Shown: piece after piece, positions 8,232-52,630 of the stretch
Layout of the letters: each line of letters starts with the position of its first letter
How positions within the stretch are numbered: position 1 is the first letter of the stretch
From: a phage
Direction: 5' to 3' (one strand)
DNA: 64,000 nucleotides
Assembly: GCA_024673055.1 (NCBI GenBank)
Contig: GCA_024673055.1_4537.1
The notes under the pieces: model-generated
Databases searched by the model: none
What the model saw: the letters and a program-made list of their open reading frames with translations, nothing else
What the model was told of the DNA's origin: nothing
Position numbers and translations under genes: made by a program

Positions 8232-8398
8232 TGGGAAATGGTATCATGATTTGCTATAAAATTGTGCGTATTGTCGGAGACGAAATTACCACTCGGTATT
8301 TTATGATAGAGTCTCAAGCCGATGAGGTTTACAATGACTGGCTTGAAAAAGGTGGGTACGATTTTGTATCTAAAGAAACTTTCCGTTTAGAAGTATAA
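8231..8398 (+). CDS. Hypothetical small protein (56 aa)
   Basis: ORF not in the track (below 60 aa). Start overlaps the upstream stop (TAATG) and it fills an operon gap. Confidence 0.35.
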   Translation: MGNGIMICYKIVRIVGDEITTRYFMIESQADEVYNDWLEKGGYDFVSKETFRLEV

Positions 8399-45015: not shown

Positions 45016-45044
45016 AGTCTACAGGATATTTGTTGTTTTGTCAA
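45016..45044 (-). promoter_or_regulatory. Sigma70-like promoter (minus strand) upstream of head genes
   Basis: On the minus strand CTATTGACAA (-35), 17 bp, TAGACT; shares the AACTATTGACAA-type -35 with the tRNA promoters. Confidence 0.45.
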
Positions 45045-49813: not shown

Positions 49814-50110
49814 TTAGATTACGATCTTTTTAGGAACGTCATCTGTATTCTGCACGGCAGGGGTTTCTTCTTCCATAGCTTCATAATGTTCTTCTAACCA
49901 TTCTTCTACTTGCTCTTTAATAGCTTTAGCTGCTTGGAAGCGGAGAGGTTTTGCTGCATCCTTATCATTAACAAGTTCAACAATATACCGCATAGCTTCT
50001 AAATAATGCTCTGCAAATAATTCTTTTACACTTGCTTGCGCCGCATCCATTGCGTAAATCTGTTGCATTTCGGCTGTTGGTCTTCCACGACCACGTTTTA
50101 GTTTAGGCAT
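49814..50110 (-). CDS. Putative DNA-binding protein, possible terminase small subunit
   Basis: N-terminal KRGRGRPT motif (AT-hook-like, common in TerS N-termini), acidic helical remainder, own promoter and terminator. Confidence 0.3.
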   Translation of the reverse strand: MPKLKRGRGRPTAEMQQIYAMDAAQASVKELFAEHYLEAMRYIVELVNDKDAAKPLRFQAAKAIKEQVEEWLEEHYEAMEEETPAVQNTDDVPKKIVI

Positions 50111-50131
50111 AATAAAATCCTCCTAAACTTT

Positions 50132-50160
50132 ATCTTAACATATAAAAAATAATAAGTCAA
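50132..50160 (-). promoter_or_regulatory. Sigma70-like promoter (minus strand)
   Basis: On the minus strand TTGACT, 17 bp, TAAGAT, then a TAGGAGGA RBS. Confidence 0.5.
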
Positions 50161-50176
50161 GTTTTATTCAATAGAT

Positions 50177-50202
50177 AGCAAAAAGCCTCCAATAAGGAGG
50201 CT
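50177..50202 (-). terminator. Rho-independent terminator (minus strand) ending the tRNA operon
   Basis: On the minus strand AGCCUCC-UUAUU-GGAGGCU followed by UUUUUGCU. Confidence 0.55.
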
Positions 50203-50315
50203 AATAAATACTGTTAATTTGAAATGCTTTATTATAATTGTGCGTTAAGGAGTCGCACCCCTCCCTCTTAGAAGGAACCAGGCAAGGTCTTCAAAGATAC
50301 CGCTGGCGCGATATT

Positions 50316-50394
50316 TGGAGGCGGGAATCGGATTCGAACCGATGATCTCCAGCATATGAAACTGGCGAGGACGACCAGACTCCTCTATCCCGCT
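50316..50394 (-). tRNA. tRNA-Met (anticodon CAT), CCA encoded
   Basis: Hand-folded cloverleaf: T-arm ATCGG-TTCGAAT-CCGAT, anticodon stem CCAGT/GCTGG with loop TTCATAT, D-stem GAGG/CCTC; the 1-72 pair is A-C (unpaired). Confidence 0.6.
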
Positions 50395-50400
50395 ATTATG

Positions 50401-50470
50401 TATCCCGTGCTGGATTCGAACCAGCATCACAATAAGTTGTGGAACTCTTATCCTGTAAGTCTAACGGGAA
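50401..50470 (-). tRNA. tRNA-like element with aberrant anticodon arm (possible pseudo-tRNA)
   Basis: Good T-arm (GCTGG-TTCGAAT-CCAGC) and near-complementary acceptor, but the anticodon region folds only as CACAA-CTTA-TTGTG (4-nt loop). Confidence 0.3.
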
Positions 50471-50472
50471 AC

Positions 50473-50546
50473 TGGTTGTTTCGACAAGAATCGAACTTGT
50501 GTCTCACGATTATCAGTCGTGGGTTCTACCATTGAACTACGAAACA
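50473..50546 (-). tRNA. tRNA-Ile (anticodon GAT), CCA encoded
   Basis: Acceptor TGTTTCG/CGAAACA, D-arm GTTC-AATGGTA-GAAC, anticodon stem CACGA/TCGTG with loop CTGATAA, T-arm ACAAG-TTCGATT-CTTGT. Confidence 0.7.
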
Positions 50547-50552
50547 TTTGAT

Positions 50553-50629
50553 TGGTCGGAATTGCAGGATTCGAACCTGCGACCCTACGCTCCCAAAGCG
50601 TATGCTCTACCAAACTGAGCTAAATTCCG
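50553..50629 (-). tRNA. tRNA-Pro (anticodon TGG), CCA encoded
   Basis: Acceptor CGGAATT/AATTCCG, D-arm GCTC...GAGC, anticodon stem TACGC/GCGTA with loop TTTGGGA, T-arm GCAGG-TTCGAAT-CCTGC. Confidence 0.7.
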
Positions 50630-50634
50630 TTATA

Positions 50635-50710
50635 TGGCTGGTCTGTCTGGATTTGAACCAAACCTACGACAGTCAAAGTGTCGTGTGCTACCGGACTACA
50701 CTACAAACCA
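50635..50710 (-). tRNA. tRNA-Gln (anticodon TTG), CCA encoded
   Basis: Acceptor TGGTTTG/CAGACCA (one GU pair), anticodon stem CGACA/TGTCG with loop CTTTGAC, T-arm TTTGG-TTCAAAT-CCAGA. Confidence 0.65.
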
Positions 50711-50808
50711 ATAAATCATTTAATGAAGGGCAACCAGAAGAGGTGTGAGAGAAGGAGAAAACCATGAGTAAAAGAGAAAGTTTTCTGGCAACCCTTTATT
50801 AAATAATT

Positions 50809-50882
50809 TGGAGCGTTCTACGAGGATCGAACTCGTGCCGCCGACTTGGAAGGACGGAATGCTACCGCTACACCAAGAACGC
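50809..50882 (-). tRNA. tRNA-Gly (anticodon TCC), CCA encoded
   Basis: Acceptor GCGTTCT/AGAACGC, anticodon loop CTTCCAA (stem has one U-U mismatch), T-arm ACGAG-TTCGATC-CTCGT. Confidence 0.6.
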
Positions 50883-50893
50883 CCTACATCTTT

Positions 50894-50923
50894 ACTATAC
50901 TACATTTTACTATTGGTTGTCAA
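50894..50923 (-). promoter_or_regulatory. Sigma70-like promoter (minus strand) for downstream tRNAs
   Basis: On the minus strand AACTATTGACAA, 18 bp, TATAGT, just upstream of tRNA-Gly. Confidence 0.5.
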
Positions 50924-51383
50924 TAGTTTTATTGAGTGGGACAGTGACGAGTATCCCGTTGGGTGACTAGCCCTACGTTCGGTAAGCTAACTTAAAATAA
51001 TACAAAACCAAAGTCAAATATTATTCTTCGTTGCTGTCGATGGGAGAGCCGCTTCTTCTTTTGCCCCATCCAACCCTACTCCGGTCAAGTTTCAGGTAAC
51101 TCTTTTTGTGATCAACACAATACTAAGAACACTGTCTTTCGAGCAGACCTTGTGCACAGGATACGACGATCAATCACAGTGCTCTTAATGTTGTGTTGTG
51201 AATACTAACCTCGGAACTCATTACCGCGTTTTGGCTCGACCTTACTACAGGTTAGTGAATGTCTTTCGTCCGCTTACATTCAATAAGTTTGCTTTCTTCA
51301 CAACGATAAGAACACTTAACAGAAGATAGGTCTGATTGCCTCGGATGATTTCTCAGTAGCCTAAATGTTCTTACCTGTTATGT

Positions 51384-51458
51384 TGGTGCTCCCACTCTGA
51401 ATCGAACAGAGATCCACGGATTACAAAACCGTTGTAATAGCCATTATACTATAGGAGC
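51384..51458 (-). tRNA. tRNA-Thr (anticodon TGT), CCA encoded
   Basis: Acceptor GCTCCTA/TGGGAGC, anticodon loop TTTGTAA (stem with one U-U mismatch), T-arm CTCTG-TTCGATT-CAGAG. Confidence 0.55.
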
Positions 51459-51464
51459 AAAGCT

Positions 51465-51541
51465 GGGACTCGGCAGGATTCGATACCTGCAATTTCAGAA
51501 GCCTCTTGGCGACTGGGGGTTTACCTTAACTCTACAAGTCC
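51465..51541 (-). tRNA. tRNA-like element, non-canonical (8-nt T-loop, no foldable anticodon arm)
   Basis: Acceptor GGACTTG/CGAGTCC and T-arm-like GCAGG-TATCGAAT-CCTGC, but no 5/7/5 anticodon arm could be found by hand. Confidence 0.3.
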
Positions 51542-51548
51542 ATAATTC

Positions 51549-51634
51549 TGGCGATGAGTATAGGATTTGAACCTATATCGTTCTTTCGAACACGGATTAA
51601 CAGTCCGCCGCTTAAACCATTCAGCCAACTCATC
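51549..51634 (-). tRNA. tRNA with anticodon GTT (Asn codons) on a long-variable-arm, Tyr-like body; CCA encoded
   Basis: Perfect acceptor GATGAGT/ACTCATC, anticodon arm GCGGA-CTGTTAA-TCCGT, 15-nt variable arm (GTTC-GAAA-GAAC), T-arm ATAGG-TTCAAAT-CCTAT; lies adjacent to tRNA-Tyr. Confidence 0.5.
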
Positions 51635-51640
51635 TTAATT

Positions 51641-51728
51641 TGGTGGTGAGTGATGGAGTCGAACCACCCGAATCGCAATGATAACAGATTTACAGTCTGC
51701 CCCGCTACCCCTACGGAATTAACTCACC
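51641..51728 (-). tRNA. tRNA-Tyr (anticodon GTA), type II, CCA encoded
   Basis: Acceptor GGTGAGT/ACTCACC, anticodon arm GCAGA-CTGTAAA-TCTGT, long variable arm, T-arm GGTGG-TTCGACT-CCATC. Confidence 0.65.
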
Positions 51729-51858
51729 TAAATACTAATATTTAAATTCTTTTTAAAATAGCCAGTGTTCACACCACTAACTATGAGTTATCGGTAAGAT
51801 GGTGGGGGCCATCTGCCGAAAGTTTACTCTATTAAAGTAAGCTATATTAAAAAGAACT

Positions 51859-51944
51859 TGGCGGTAGATGTAGGACTCGAACCTACATGCCGTTTCCGAC
51901 TACAGTTTAGCAAACTGTCGTGGCTACCATTTCACCAATCTACC
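51859..51944 (-). tRNA. tRNA-Ser (anticodon GCT), type II, CCA encoded
   Basis: Acceptor GGTAGAT/ATCTACC, anticodon arm ACAGT-TTGCTAA-ACTGT, long variable arm, T-arm GTAGG-TTCGAGT-CCTAC. Confidence 0.65.
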
Positions 51945-51948
51945 AATC

Positions 51949-52039
51949 TGGCGGAAGGAGGGAGAGTCGAACTCCCAAGGCTCTTTCAAGCTCGGCGGTT
52001 TTCAAGACCGTTTTCGTCGCCACGTCGATTTGCCCTTCC
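51949..52039 (-). tRNA. tRNA-Ser (anticodon TGA), type II, CCA encoded
   Basis: Acceptor GGAAGGG/TCCTTCC, anticodon loop CTTGAAA, long variable arm, T-arm GGGAG-TTCGACT-CTCCC. Confidence 0.55.
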
Positions 52040-52047
52040 ATACTTAT

Positions 52048-52077
52048 AATCTAACATAAAATAATGTTAGTTGTCAA
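52048..52077 (-). promoter_or_regulatory. Sigma70-like promoter (minus strand) inside the tRNA cluster
   Basis: On the minus strand AACTATTGACAA, 18 bp, TAGATT, upstream of tRNA-Ser(TGA). Confidence 0.45.
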
Positions 52078-52273
52078 TAGTTTTTTAAAACATTTTACCA
52101 TGAATGGTGACTCCACCAACCCCCGTTCTCAACGAACGGTGCTCTTCGAGCATTTATGTCTTCTAATATAACCGTGGCCTTTGTTTATAATGTCTGACAT
52201 ACTTGCCTCATTCTCTGCCACCATGATCAGTAGTGGGTTCAAATCACTTGAGCTAATTCATGTTAAAATGTTC

Positions 52274-52348
52274 TGGTGTCTTTACAAGGAATCGAACCTT
52301 GACTAAGAGTTTAGAAGACTCCTGTGCTATCCATTACACCATAAAGAC
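52274..52348 (-). tRNA. tRNA-Arg (anticodon TCT), CCA encoded
   Basis: Acceptor GTCTTTA/TAAAGAC, anticodon arm GGAGT-CTTCTAA-ACTCT, T-arm CAAGG-TTCGATT-CCTTG. Confidence 0.7.
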
Positions 52349-52350
52349 GT

Positions 52351-52425
52351 TGGTGGCCCTGGCTGGTTTCGATCCAGCTACCTATCGGTTATGAGCCGAC
52401 AGCTCTCCCATTGAGCTACAGGGCC
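52351..52425 (-). tRNA. tRNA with anticodon CAT (Met, or Ile if lysidine-modified), CCA encoded
   Basis: Acceptor GGCCCTG/CAGGGCC, D-arm GCTC-AATGGGA-GAGC, anticodon arm GTCGG-CTCATAA-CCGAT, T-arm GCTGG-ATCGAAA-CCAGC. Confidence 0.65.
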
Positions 52426-52630
52426 ATAAATGTGGTAACAGAGACGCTGACGATTGTAGAGAACCGCTACATTCTCTAAGACCAAGCCCAACTTTCAGCG
52501 TAAAAGTTCTTGAGCCGAGACTATTCCTTTTCCTCTTTGGTAGCTAACCTCTGAAGAAGTAGTCTCTAACACTACCGCAGTGCAAGCCCCTCTTAACAAA
52601 AGTCAACGACCCTGTTACCACACTTGATGA

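Follow-up and report, generated by a model that had tools for sequence, protein, structure and literature searches.

The 64,000-nucleotide (nt) phage sequence analyzed here (assembly GCA_024673055.1, contig GCA_024673055.1_4537.1; hereafter the window) carries on its minus strand, at positions 50316-52425, a cluster of 12 transfer RNA (tRNA) genes that is very likely the tRNA operon of a Phapecoctavirus (phAPEC8-like) Escherichia coli myovirus, transcribed by the host polymerase from three predicted promoters and cut into tRNAs that would supply codons favored by the phage. The 12-tRNA cluster itself is ordinary and already known, because the annotation of close relatives lists the same 12 tRNAs. 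A preliminary description of this sequence presented the locus as tRNAs and promoters, both of which are present, but it overlooked that ~1.5 kilobases (kb), or ~60%, of the 2.5-kb transcribed operon is conserved structured non-tRNA RNA. Covariation indicates that several of these spacers are conserved structured RNAs rather than filler. Unless stated otherwise, all features below lie on the minus strand.

Over the 2.9 kb around the cluster the window shares 98.8% identity with Escherichia phage vB_EcoM_DE16. In all, 316 phage records match some or all of this region, mostly at 80-99% identity; those matching along its full length are ~150-kb E. coli myoviruses of the genus Phapecoctavirus (the phAPEC8 group). 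The clusters of phAPEC8 and other Phapecoctavirus genomes, among them ASO2A, Mt1B1_P17 and DE16, agree with it in gene content and order, with 96-99% identity. We searched for tRNA genes with ARAGORN, at its default and at relaxed thresholds (-ps90, -ps80), and with the Rfam tRNA model RF00005 (gathering score 29). Default ARAGORN returned 10 of the 12 genes, all on the minus strand and with outer limits of exactly 50316 and 52425, while 11 of the 12 exceeded the Rfam gathering score at 39-72 bits (stated E-values of 1e-7 to 1e-13), the addition to the default set being tRNA-Tyr(GTA) (51644-51728, 39 bits). The remaining gene, tRNA-Ser(TGA), appeared only at -ps90, its full 7-base-pair (bp) acceptor frame being 51949-52039. 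Together with the tRNAscan-SE annotation of the near-identical ASO2A, which gives the same 12 anticodons in the same order, these searches bear out the number, strand and anticodons of the genes first proposed.

In the direction of transcription, the array comprises a CAT tRNA that is probably Ile2 (52351-52425; ARAGORN, Rfam 64.5 bits), tRNA-Arg(TCT) (52274-52348; ARAGORN, Rfam 66.3 bits), tRNA-Ser(TGA) (51949-52039; 91 nt, class II, with a degenerate D arm), tRNA-Ser(GCT) (51859-51944; 86 nt, class II), tRNA-Tyr(GTA) (51641-51728; 88 nt, class II, A73; also found by relaxed ARAGORN), a GTT tRNA most likely specific for Asn (51549-51634; 86 nt, G73, long variable arm), tRNA-Thr(TGT) (51384-51458; U31.U39 mismatch), tRNA-Gly(TCC) (50809-50882), tRNA-Gln(TTG) (50635-50710; U1-A72, G73), tRNA-Pro(TGG) (50553-50629), tRNA-Ile(GAT) (50473-50546) and a second CAT tRNA (50316-50394; 79 nt, A1.C72, U73, 5-6-bp D stem). 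From tRNA-Ser(GCT) onward, every gene apart from tRNA-Tyr was found by both ARAGORN and Rfam. All 12, and not just most as first described, encode CCA directly after the discriminator base, and all have a 7-bp acceptor stem, with the A1.C72 mismatch in 50316-50394. The term canonical, applied initially to the whole set, suits eight of the 12, whereas the GTT, Tyr(GTA) and Ser(TGA) tRNAs and one CAT tRNA are atypical, as discussed below.

The three proposed promoters with a common extended -35 element were recovered, the shared 12-mer AACTATTGACAA being found at 50917, 52071 and 52658. It occurs exactly three times in the 64 kb, always on the minus strand within the cluster; allowing up to one mismatch gives four matches against 0.73 expected, a count reached in 0 of 100 shuffles. 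A further recurrence claimed at 45039 held only in part, since that site reads tTCTATTGACAA and shares CTATTGACAA (10 of 12 bases) but is not the 12-mer. Predicted promoter P1 (52635-52669) has AACTATTGACAA with the -35 hexamer TTGACA, an 18-nt spacer and an extended -10 element, TGtTAGGAT; P2 (52048-52082) has the same 12-mer and spacer length before TGtTAGATT, and P3 (50894-50928) likewise before TATAGT. The hexamers match the sigma-70 consensus at 10-11 of 12 positions, and two of the three have TGn. Promoter-like sites are not in excess in the region (5, compared with 5.8 in shuffles), and the support therefore comes from the repeated 12-mer, its position before tRNAs and the conservation of the hexamers. 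In the divergent lineage represented by PsgM04F and phiWec186 (L003/L004), P3 is 95% conserved, and P1 and P2 are 68-78% identical overall but keep TTGACA and the TGt-TA..AT -10 element. Such retention of hexamers amid diverged spacers is the pattern expected of functional promoters, and the consensus matches predict that P1-P3 are active. Also as proposed, a G+C-rich stem followed by a T-run lies at 50177-50202 (AGCCTCC-TTATT-GGAGGCT then TTTTT; stem at 50184-50202, with 7 bp, five G-C pairs and a 5-nt loop); this intrinsic terminator is annotated in ASO2A as well. A scan of the cluster found no terminator between the three promoter units, so that read-through is likely.

The spacers between these genes are conserved to the same degree as the tRNAs and carry no annotation in any record inspected. 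On the tRNA strand they contain no credible open reading frame (ORF), the longest being TTG- or GTG-started, at most 61 amino acids (aa) long and overlapping tRNAs. Compared with shuffled controls, fold z-scores were -5.8 for A, -5.7 for F, -4.2 for C, -4.1 for B, -3.3 for G and -1.6 for H. The most elaborate of these RNAs, the ~200-nt leader A (52427-52625), begins ~3 nt past the predicted P1 start and stops 2 nt short of the first tRNA. Its 73 pairs form 10 helices, including a 26-bp terminal helix, with 98.6% of cells paired, and nine compensatory double changes fall across six helices, as opposed to 0-2 in slid controls; A was found only in Phapecoctavirus. Spacer B (52083-52273) has a 17-bp closing helix, conserved inner hairpins and a variable middle that, when translated, gives unrelated peptides in two lineages; its 50 pairs include one compensatory and four one-sided changes. 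We considered small proteins in A and B and rejected them: the 34-41-aa ORFs that annotation pipelines place there in relatives are TTG-started or not frame-conserved, and the substitutions preserve helices. Spacer C (51729-51858) folds as a four-way junction of a closing stem and three hairpins, and six of its 38 pairs show compensatory changes across three genera, with one closing-stem pair occurring as CG, GC and AU. It is present in Phapecoctavirus, in phi92 (Justusliebigvirus) and in rV5-like Vequintavirus, where it is 92.5% identical.

E3 (50929-51198) begins as an invariant ~31-bp hairpin (51113-51198), beyond which the sequence is partly variable, and each of the four compensatory changes among its 63 pairs lies outside that hairpin. 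F (50711-50808) is a ~25-bp stem around a conserved ~40-nt CU-rich loop; in phi92 the stem is almost wholly rewritten with pairing kept, through G.U wobbles that are valid only on the minus (tRNA) strand, and the 40-nt loop sequence is retained, its core being conserved in Justusliebigvirus. The loop is antisense to GAAGGAGAAAACCAUGAG, a ribosome-binding site plus AUG. A target in trans was sought for it and rejected: the sole other site in the window, at 8396, is a generic ribosome-binding site that lacks extended complementarity. H (50232-50315), the 3'-terminal element of the array, shows 92-99% conservation, with identities of 88% to phi92 and 92.7% to Citrobacter phage Tr1; its fold is weakly supported, with a z-score of only -1.6 and one compensatory pair. 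The structures of F, G, H and the E3 hairpin are thermodynamic folds, to which one comparison with phi92 can be added for F. Searches of Rfam at E<=10 returned only chance matches far below threshold for spacers A-H, other hits in the region being tRNA-derived or at the terminator end. Wider homologues of A and F looked possible from a 16-17-mer scan of IMG/VR, but 89 of the 90 loci proved to be chance matches after BLAST filtering, leaving L035 as the only true relative.

The element with the broadest distribution is the E1 motif (51296-51383), a ~85-nt hairpin that starts directly 3' of the CCA of tRNA-Thr. It combines a covarying enclosing stem, a small GNRA hairpin with one compensatory change and a 26-nt invariant segment, within a nearly invariant core that reads CAUCCGAGGCAAUCAGACCyAUCUUCUG. 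Seven of its 24 pairs covary, and its score of 0.273 compares with at most 0.076 for slid alignments. E1 occurs in 28 phage records from at least six unrelated lineages, its carriers including Phapecoctavirus, N4-like Gamaleyavirus, the BASEL phage Bas81, Taipeivirus, Kuttervirus, Jedunavirus and Xanthomonas jumbo phages; in the last of these it begins 3 nt past tRNA-Tyr. It was absent from the 185,579 bacterial and archaeal genomes searched, and we found neither an annotation in its records nor an Rfam match at E<=10. The idea that E1 is a known ribozyme or small RNA was set aside on that Rfam result and on an informal inspection by eye, which revealed no hammerhead, twister, pistol or hatchet core. 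In the window E1 forms the first half of an optional 185-nt E1/E2 module (51199-51383) that is flanked by CAACA(T/C)AAC direct repeats.

Two other elements resemble tRNAs that lack CCA, and both were detected by ARAGORN at -ps80. Element D (51459-51548) adjoins the 3' side of tRNA-Asn, the same place that rna3 occupies in T5 (L115 8878-8950), and the two share conserved blocks and covarying acceptor-like and T-arm-like helices, with double changes at eight of 17 pairs. D is kept even in relatives where a small gene replaces tRNA-Asn. The sequence comparison thus identifies D as a homologue of T5 RNA3, which the T5 record calls only a putative tRNA-like RNA. Element G (50395-50472) is 95-97% conserved and has a perfect T arm (GCTGGTTCGAATCCAGC), an 8/9-bp acceptor-like stem and an oversized "anticodon" loop of 10 nt, with ACA where a tRNA would have CCA. 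A match of G to the tRNA-Trp(CCA) that phi92 yields at relaxed thresholds was dismissed, as they cannot be aligned and lie in different gene orders.

Taking together the observed gene content, the promoter and terminator motifs and their conservation, the covarying RNA structures, the codon bias and the cassette mosaic, we infer the following course of expression. Host sigma-70 RNA polymerase would start at the near-consensus P1, P2 and P3, with the 200-nt structured leader A preceding the first tRNA on the P1 transcript, the P2 start lying ~2 nt before tRNA-Ser(TGA) and the P3 start ~5 nt before tRNA-Gly. Transcription would end at the single intrinsic terminator at 50177-50202. The polycistronic RNA would then be cut into 12 tRNAs by host RNase P, RNase E and 3' exonucleases, probably with RNase III acting on the long spacer helices, and since CCA is encoded no CCA addition would be needed. 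Under the predicted charging identities, Arg-UCU, Thr-UGU, Pro-UGG, Gly-UCC, Gln-UUG and the CAU tRNA acting as Ile2 would supply the A-ending codons favored by the phage. The spacer and tRNA-like RNAs would be released as by-products or co-products of tRNA processing and may be stable, as in the tRNA regions of T5 and T4.

What these released RNAs do, if anything, can be read in more than one way. A possible, though tentative, extension of the operon model is that the tRNA array also serves as a platform for expressing undescribed phage non-coding RNAs, E1 being the clearest case; A, C, F, D and G may then be functional RNAs set free by tRNA-processing enzymes, with candidate roles as decoys or inhibitors of tRNA-targeting defense nucleases or as regulators of translation. 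The spacers could instead be mere processing scaffolds, their helices serving as RNase III or RNase E sites and the excised pieces being degraded without function. That in A, B, C and F alike the 5' end pairs with the 3' end of the same spacer, in ~14-26-bp helices adjoining tRNA ends, and that the E3 hairpin is a ~31-bp near-perfect duplex, speaks for such a role, as does the participation of RNase III in T4 tRNA precursor processing. A plain cleavage site, however, needs neither the 10 covarying helices of A nor the conserved four-way junction that C shares across three genera, neither the sequence-invariant 40-nt loop of F nor a 26-nt invariant core like that of E1 across six phage lineages; moreover, E1 is also found away from tRNAs in Taipeivirus, and T5 counterparts are on record as stable RNAs. 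We therefore regard the pure scaffold account as doubtful, while giving it real weight. For F alone, conservation of the loop might reflect a micro-protein on the plus strand, where 50751-50768 reads GAAGGAGAAAACCATGAG, a textbook ribosome-binding site and start codon (AAGGAG, six bases, ATG and 12 codons, MSKRESFLATLY). In phi92, two offsetting indels shift the frame over conserved bases, giving MSEKRNFL and a stop after eight codons, which places the conservation at the nucleotide level; the G.U pairs of the F stem would become C.A mismatches on the plus strand, and no promoter was found when one was sought there. A micro-protein is thus a very unlikely reason for the conservation of the loop.

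Among the atypical tRNAs, the GTT tRNA is the most distinctive. At 86 nt, it has a class II variable arm made of a 4-bp stem and a GAAA loop, together with G1-C72, A2-U71 and G73. The same design recurs in phi92 (85 nt; L006 3357-3441) and in the T5-like phage FFH1 (83 nt; L097 426-508), and the long-arm GTT family extends to 561 phage records (T5-like, T4-like Klebsiella/Enterobacter, phi92 and Phapecoctavirus); by comparison, the tRNA-Asn genes of phages T2 and T5 are of the ordinary short type, that of T5 being 78 nt and class I. When 5,426 E. coli genomes were searched by BLAST for the nearest host tRNA, nothing beyond a chance match of 35 nt in yobD came up, and we found no description of a long-arm GTT tRNA in the searchable literature. 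The combination of a Ser-like body with an Asn anticodon raises the question of charging. Asn identity consists of the anticodon plus G73 and can be transplanted between tRNA bodies, while Ser identity rests mainly on G73 and the long variable arm, irrespective of the anticodon, with G1-C72 and G2-C71 conserved in bacterial tRNA-Ser (PMC9976931). The GTT tRNA holds the complete Asn set (G34, U35, U36 and G73), from which we take it to be, most likely, an Asn acceptor with an added arm. That arm might have evolved to evade a host tRNA nuclease without loss of Asn charging, a separate possibility that we hold as tentatively as the platform proposal above.

Were the GTT tRNA charged with Ser rather than Asn, it would place Ser at AAC and AAU codons, whether to mistranslate deliberately or to act as a toxic or decoy tRNA. 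Its long variable arm, G73 and G1-C72 fit a tRNA-Ser-type body, the GCU and GUU anticodons are one base apart, and a Ser(GCT) gene of equal length lies nearby. Against Ser charging, the 2:71 pair is A2-U71 and not the G2-C71 of bacterial tRNA-Ser, the extra arm (3-4 bp) is shorter than that of E. coli tRNA-Ser, the full and transplantable Asn set is in place, and the maintenance of the design in 561 phage records would be unexpected of a proteome-wide Asn-to-Ser mistranslator. The anticodon stem-loop, CGGACUGUUAAUCCG, is also that of E. coli tRNA-Asn. Misacylation with Ser is on this evidence quite unlikely. A second competing view concerns weak members of the array and holds that the 79-nt CAT, Tyr(GTA) and Ser(TGA) tRNAs, with elements D and G, are decaying pseudogenes, the cluster being partly junk kept by linkage. 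All five have low or subthreshold scores, CCA is missing from D and G, whose anticodon loops are abnormal, and relatives gain and lose cassettes of the cluster. Annotation points the same way for two of the suspected pseudogenes, Tyr(GTA) and one CAT tRNA, which the NCBI pipeline labels "pseudo" in a RefSeq relative; the 50316-50394 gene is "Pseudo-CAT" in RefSeq and GenBank relatives. Yet the three low-scoring tRNAs retain full 7-bp acceptor stems, T arms and encoded CCA; the oddities of the 79-nt CAT gene recur in the annotated T5 initiator and are therefore conserved, not decaying; and D keeps its helices through compensatory changes between T5 and the present phage. D and G, moreover, stay 92-99% conserved while adjoining tRNAs are swapped for alleles of 57-80% identity, and decay of this group is accordingly unlikely.

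The two CAT genes, both given at first as tRNA-Met, do carry CAT anticodons, but the Met label fits them imprecisely. That at 52351-52425 has the acceptor stem GGCCCUG/CAGGGCC; the identical gene in ASO2A is labeled Ile-CAT by tRNAscan-SE, and other records say Met. Determinants of tRNA-Ile2 include the acceptor pairs C4-G69 and C5-G68, and the acceptor of this tRNA (GGCCC.../...GGGCCACCA) is similar to that of E. coli Ile2. We conclude from these sequence features that it is probably a tRNA-Ile2, a lysidine-modified AUA decoder, which fits the high AUA use in the phage. The 50316-50394 gene instead resembles T5 tRNAfM (L115 7429-7506), sharing a 1:72 mismatch (A1.C72 here, U1.U72 in the annotated T5 initiator), U73 and a 5-6-bp D stem. 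The anticodon stem of an initiator typically contains an unbroken run of three G-C pairs (29-31 with 39-41); the stem here is CCAGU/GCUGG, without this run, and the T5 version also lacks it. The Ser(TGA) gene scores best in Rfam with the tRNA-Sec model, a reading that was rejected because the anticodon is UGA and not UCA and the score is 37.4 bits against a gathering score of 47; tRNAscan-SE labels it Ser-TGA in ASO2A, and its anticodon stem shows one compensatory change relative to L004. The Tyr(GTA) gene is 57% identical to the phAPEC8 allele, with adjoining genes 100% identical, and 84% identical to T5 tRNA-Tyr; the allele is common to rV5-like, T2 and T5 phages.

A comparison of phage and host codon usage, suggested in the preliminary description, agrees with a role in decoding. 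Among 15,752 codons from the long ORFs of the window, the fractions were 0.18 for AGA, 0.43 for ACA, 0.38 for CCA, 0.27 for GGA, 0.68 for CAA and 0.18 for AUA. The corresponding E. coli values (Kazusa table) are 0.04, 0.13, 0.19, 0.11, 0.35 and 0.07, so that the phage uses these six A-ending codons 2-4.5 times more than its host. This bias fits codon supply for a 39%-GC genome. A second use is suggested by analogy. The PARIS effector AriB cuts the host tRNAs Lys(UUU), Thr(UGU) and Asn(GUU), and infection is rescued by the phage T5 versions (PMC12409363); retron effectors are likewise evaded by phage tRNAs (PMC11555353), and phage tRNAs have been proposed more generally as counter-defense (PMC10264068). 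Among the tRNA species so targeted (Lys, Thr and Asn, supplied by T5 against AriB, and Tyr, supplied by phages against retron effectors), Thr(UGU), Asn(GUU) and Tyr(GUA) are present here, the Tyr, Asn and Thr genes being neighbors in the array, and by this likeness they probably also act as replacement tRNAs against defense nucleases. The T5 case differs in that the present phage has no Lys(UUU) and no evident escape mutation in the Asn anticodon arm, and the long variable arm is not discussed in those papers, the word "variable" being absent from PMC12409363. We did not count the T5 rescue as evidence for the long-arm tRNA-Asn, T5's own being a normal 78-nt tRNA.

Several observations weigh against the operon model as outlined, or narrow it. 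With four atypical tRNAs and two genes labeled pseudogenes by the NCBI pipeline in a relative, not all 12 need be functional decoders, and the codon bias leaves Ile-GAU, Tyr, Asn, Ser-GCU and the second, initiator-like CAU tRNA unexplained. For promoter use, for read-through among the three units and for the sites of processing, the model offers predictions from sequence. Covariation for A and B comes from two lineages only, in which each double change is a single event, and the near-invariance of F, G, H and the E3 hairpin within the genus could reflect recent shared ancestry rather than selection. The anti-defense role is drawn by analogy only; the Asn anticodon arm keeps the host-like U36-A-A-U-C-C41 at the reported AriB cleavage site (between 40 and 41), and the T5 tRNA-Asn used in the PARIS work is of class I and not long-armed.

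The closest precedent for the full anatomy of the cluster is the T5 tRNA region (NC_005859), which has 25 tRNA features and the stable RNAs RNAI, III, IV, 1, 2, 2H, 3 and X. As here, tRNAs in T5 are interspersed with sigma-70 promoters and with stable or tRNA-like RNAs, described in the T5 record as "with unknown functions," and the two regions share the position of D/RNA3, the architecture of the 79-nt CAT gene and tRNAfM, and a closely similar tRNA-Tyr. The other T5 stable RNAs, in contrast, have no sequence similarity to spacers A, B, C, E, F or H, and the T5 region contains HNH endonuclease genes where the present copy has none, although some relatives have one. T4, which has eight tRNAs in two sub-clusters, comes second. 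RNAC and RNAD (species 1 and 2 RNAs) derive from its tRNA region, with roles unassigned (PMC3014915), so that T4, too, has a polycistronic tRNA operon from which small stable RNAs arise. The 52351-52425 CAT gene is 95-96% identical to a gene in T4-like phages; whole-cluster searches nonetheless match T-even and T4-like phages in tRNA genes only and not in spacers, and no T-even record is among the listed matches of the spacer A and F searches. Structured RNAs of phages and prophages that are "often near tRNA islands" include GOLLD and ROOL (PMC12286853), but these are 580 to >800 nt long, have Rfam models and form multimeric cages, unlike the 85-200-nt RNAs here, and neither model matched the region even at E<=10.

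Taken alone, the finding of the cluster adds nothing to what is in GenBank, and codon supply and tRNA replacement are textbook or review material. It is the by-products of checking it that deserve attention: the covariation-supported RNAs, the cross-family tRNA-trailer motif E1 and the widespread long-arm tRNA-Asn. The neglected 60% of the operon could matter, as the stable RNAs of T4 and T5 have been without an assigned function for some fifty years, and this locus offers compact, covariation-supported examples (A, C, F, D/RNA3 and E1), some of them common to unrelated phages, in a well-behaved E. coli phage that lends itself to deletions and to challenge with tRNA-targeting defense systems. 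Hundreds of phage genomes carry the long-arm tRNA-Asn, which poses a simple biochemical question as to which synthetase charges it and which nuclease spares it.

The cluster is also a mosaic of exchangeable cassettes. In relatives whose adjoining genes are 100% identical, alleles of only 48-80% identity take the place of those for Tyr, Thr, Pro and Ser(TGA). The window differs from the phAPEC8 group in having the 185-nt E1/E2 module, which L001, L004, L005 and phAPEC8 lack, and in lacking a 93-nt module that relatives carry between Pro and Gln, and it differs from phAPEC8 itself in its Tyr allele of the rV5/T2/T5 type. A 42-aa gene (MLFDYWFDLEKVC..., with a good ribosome-binding site) stands in the place of tRNA-Asn at L003 2219-2347 and L004 1813-1941, and other relatives have an HNH endonuclease gene or a helix-turn-helix (HTH)-antitoxin gene within the cluster. 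The phi92 array also has a gene of this length (42 aa, 129 nt), annotated as an rIII-like lysis-inhibition accessory protein.

Upstream of the cluster lies a block of small genes, and on the downstream side it is followed by a 98-aa gene, by spanin-like genes and by the gene for the large terminase. Just past the terminator, a promoter-like site at 50109-50160 on the minus strand (TTGACT, 17-nt spacer, TGtTAAGAT) serves the 98-aa gene at 49814-50110.

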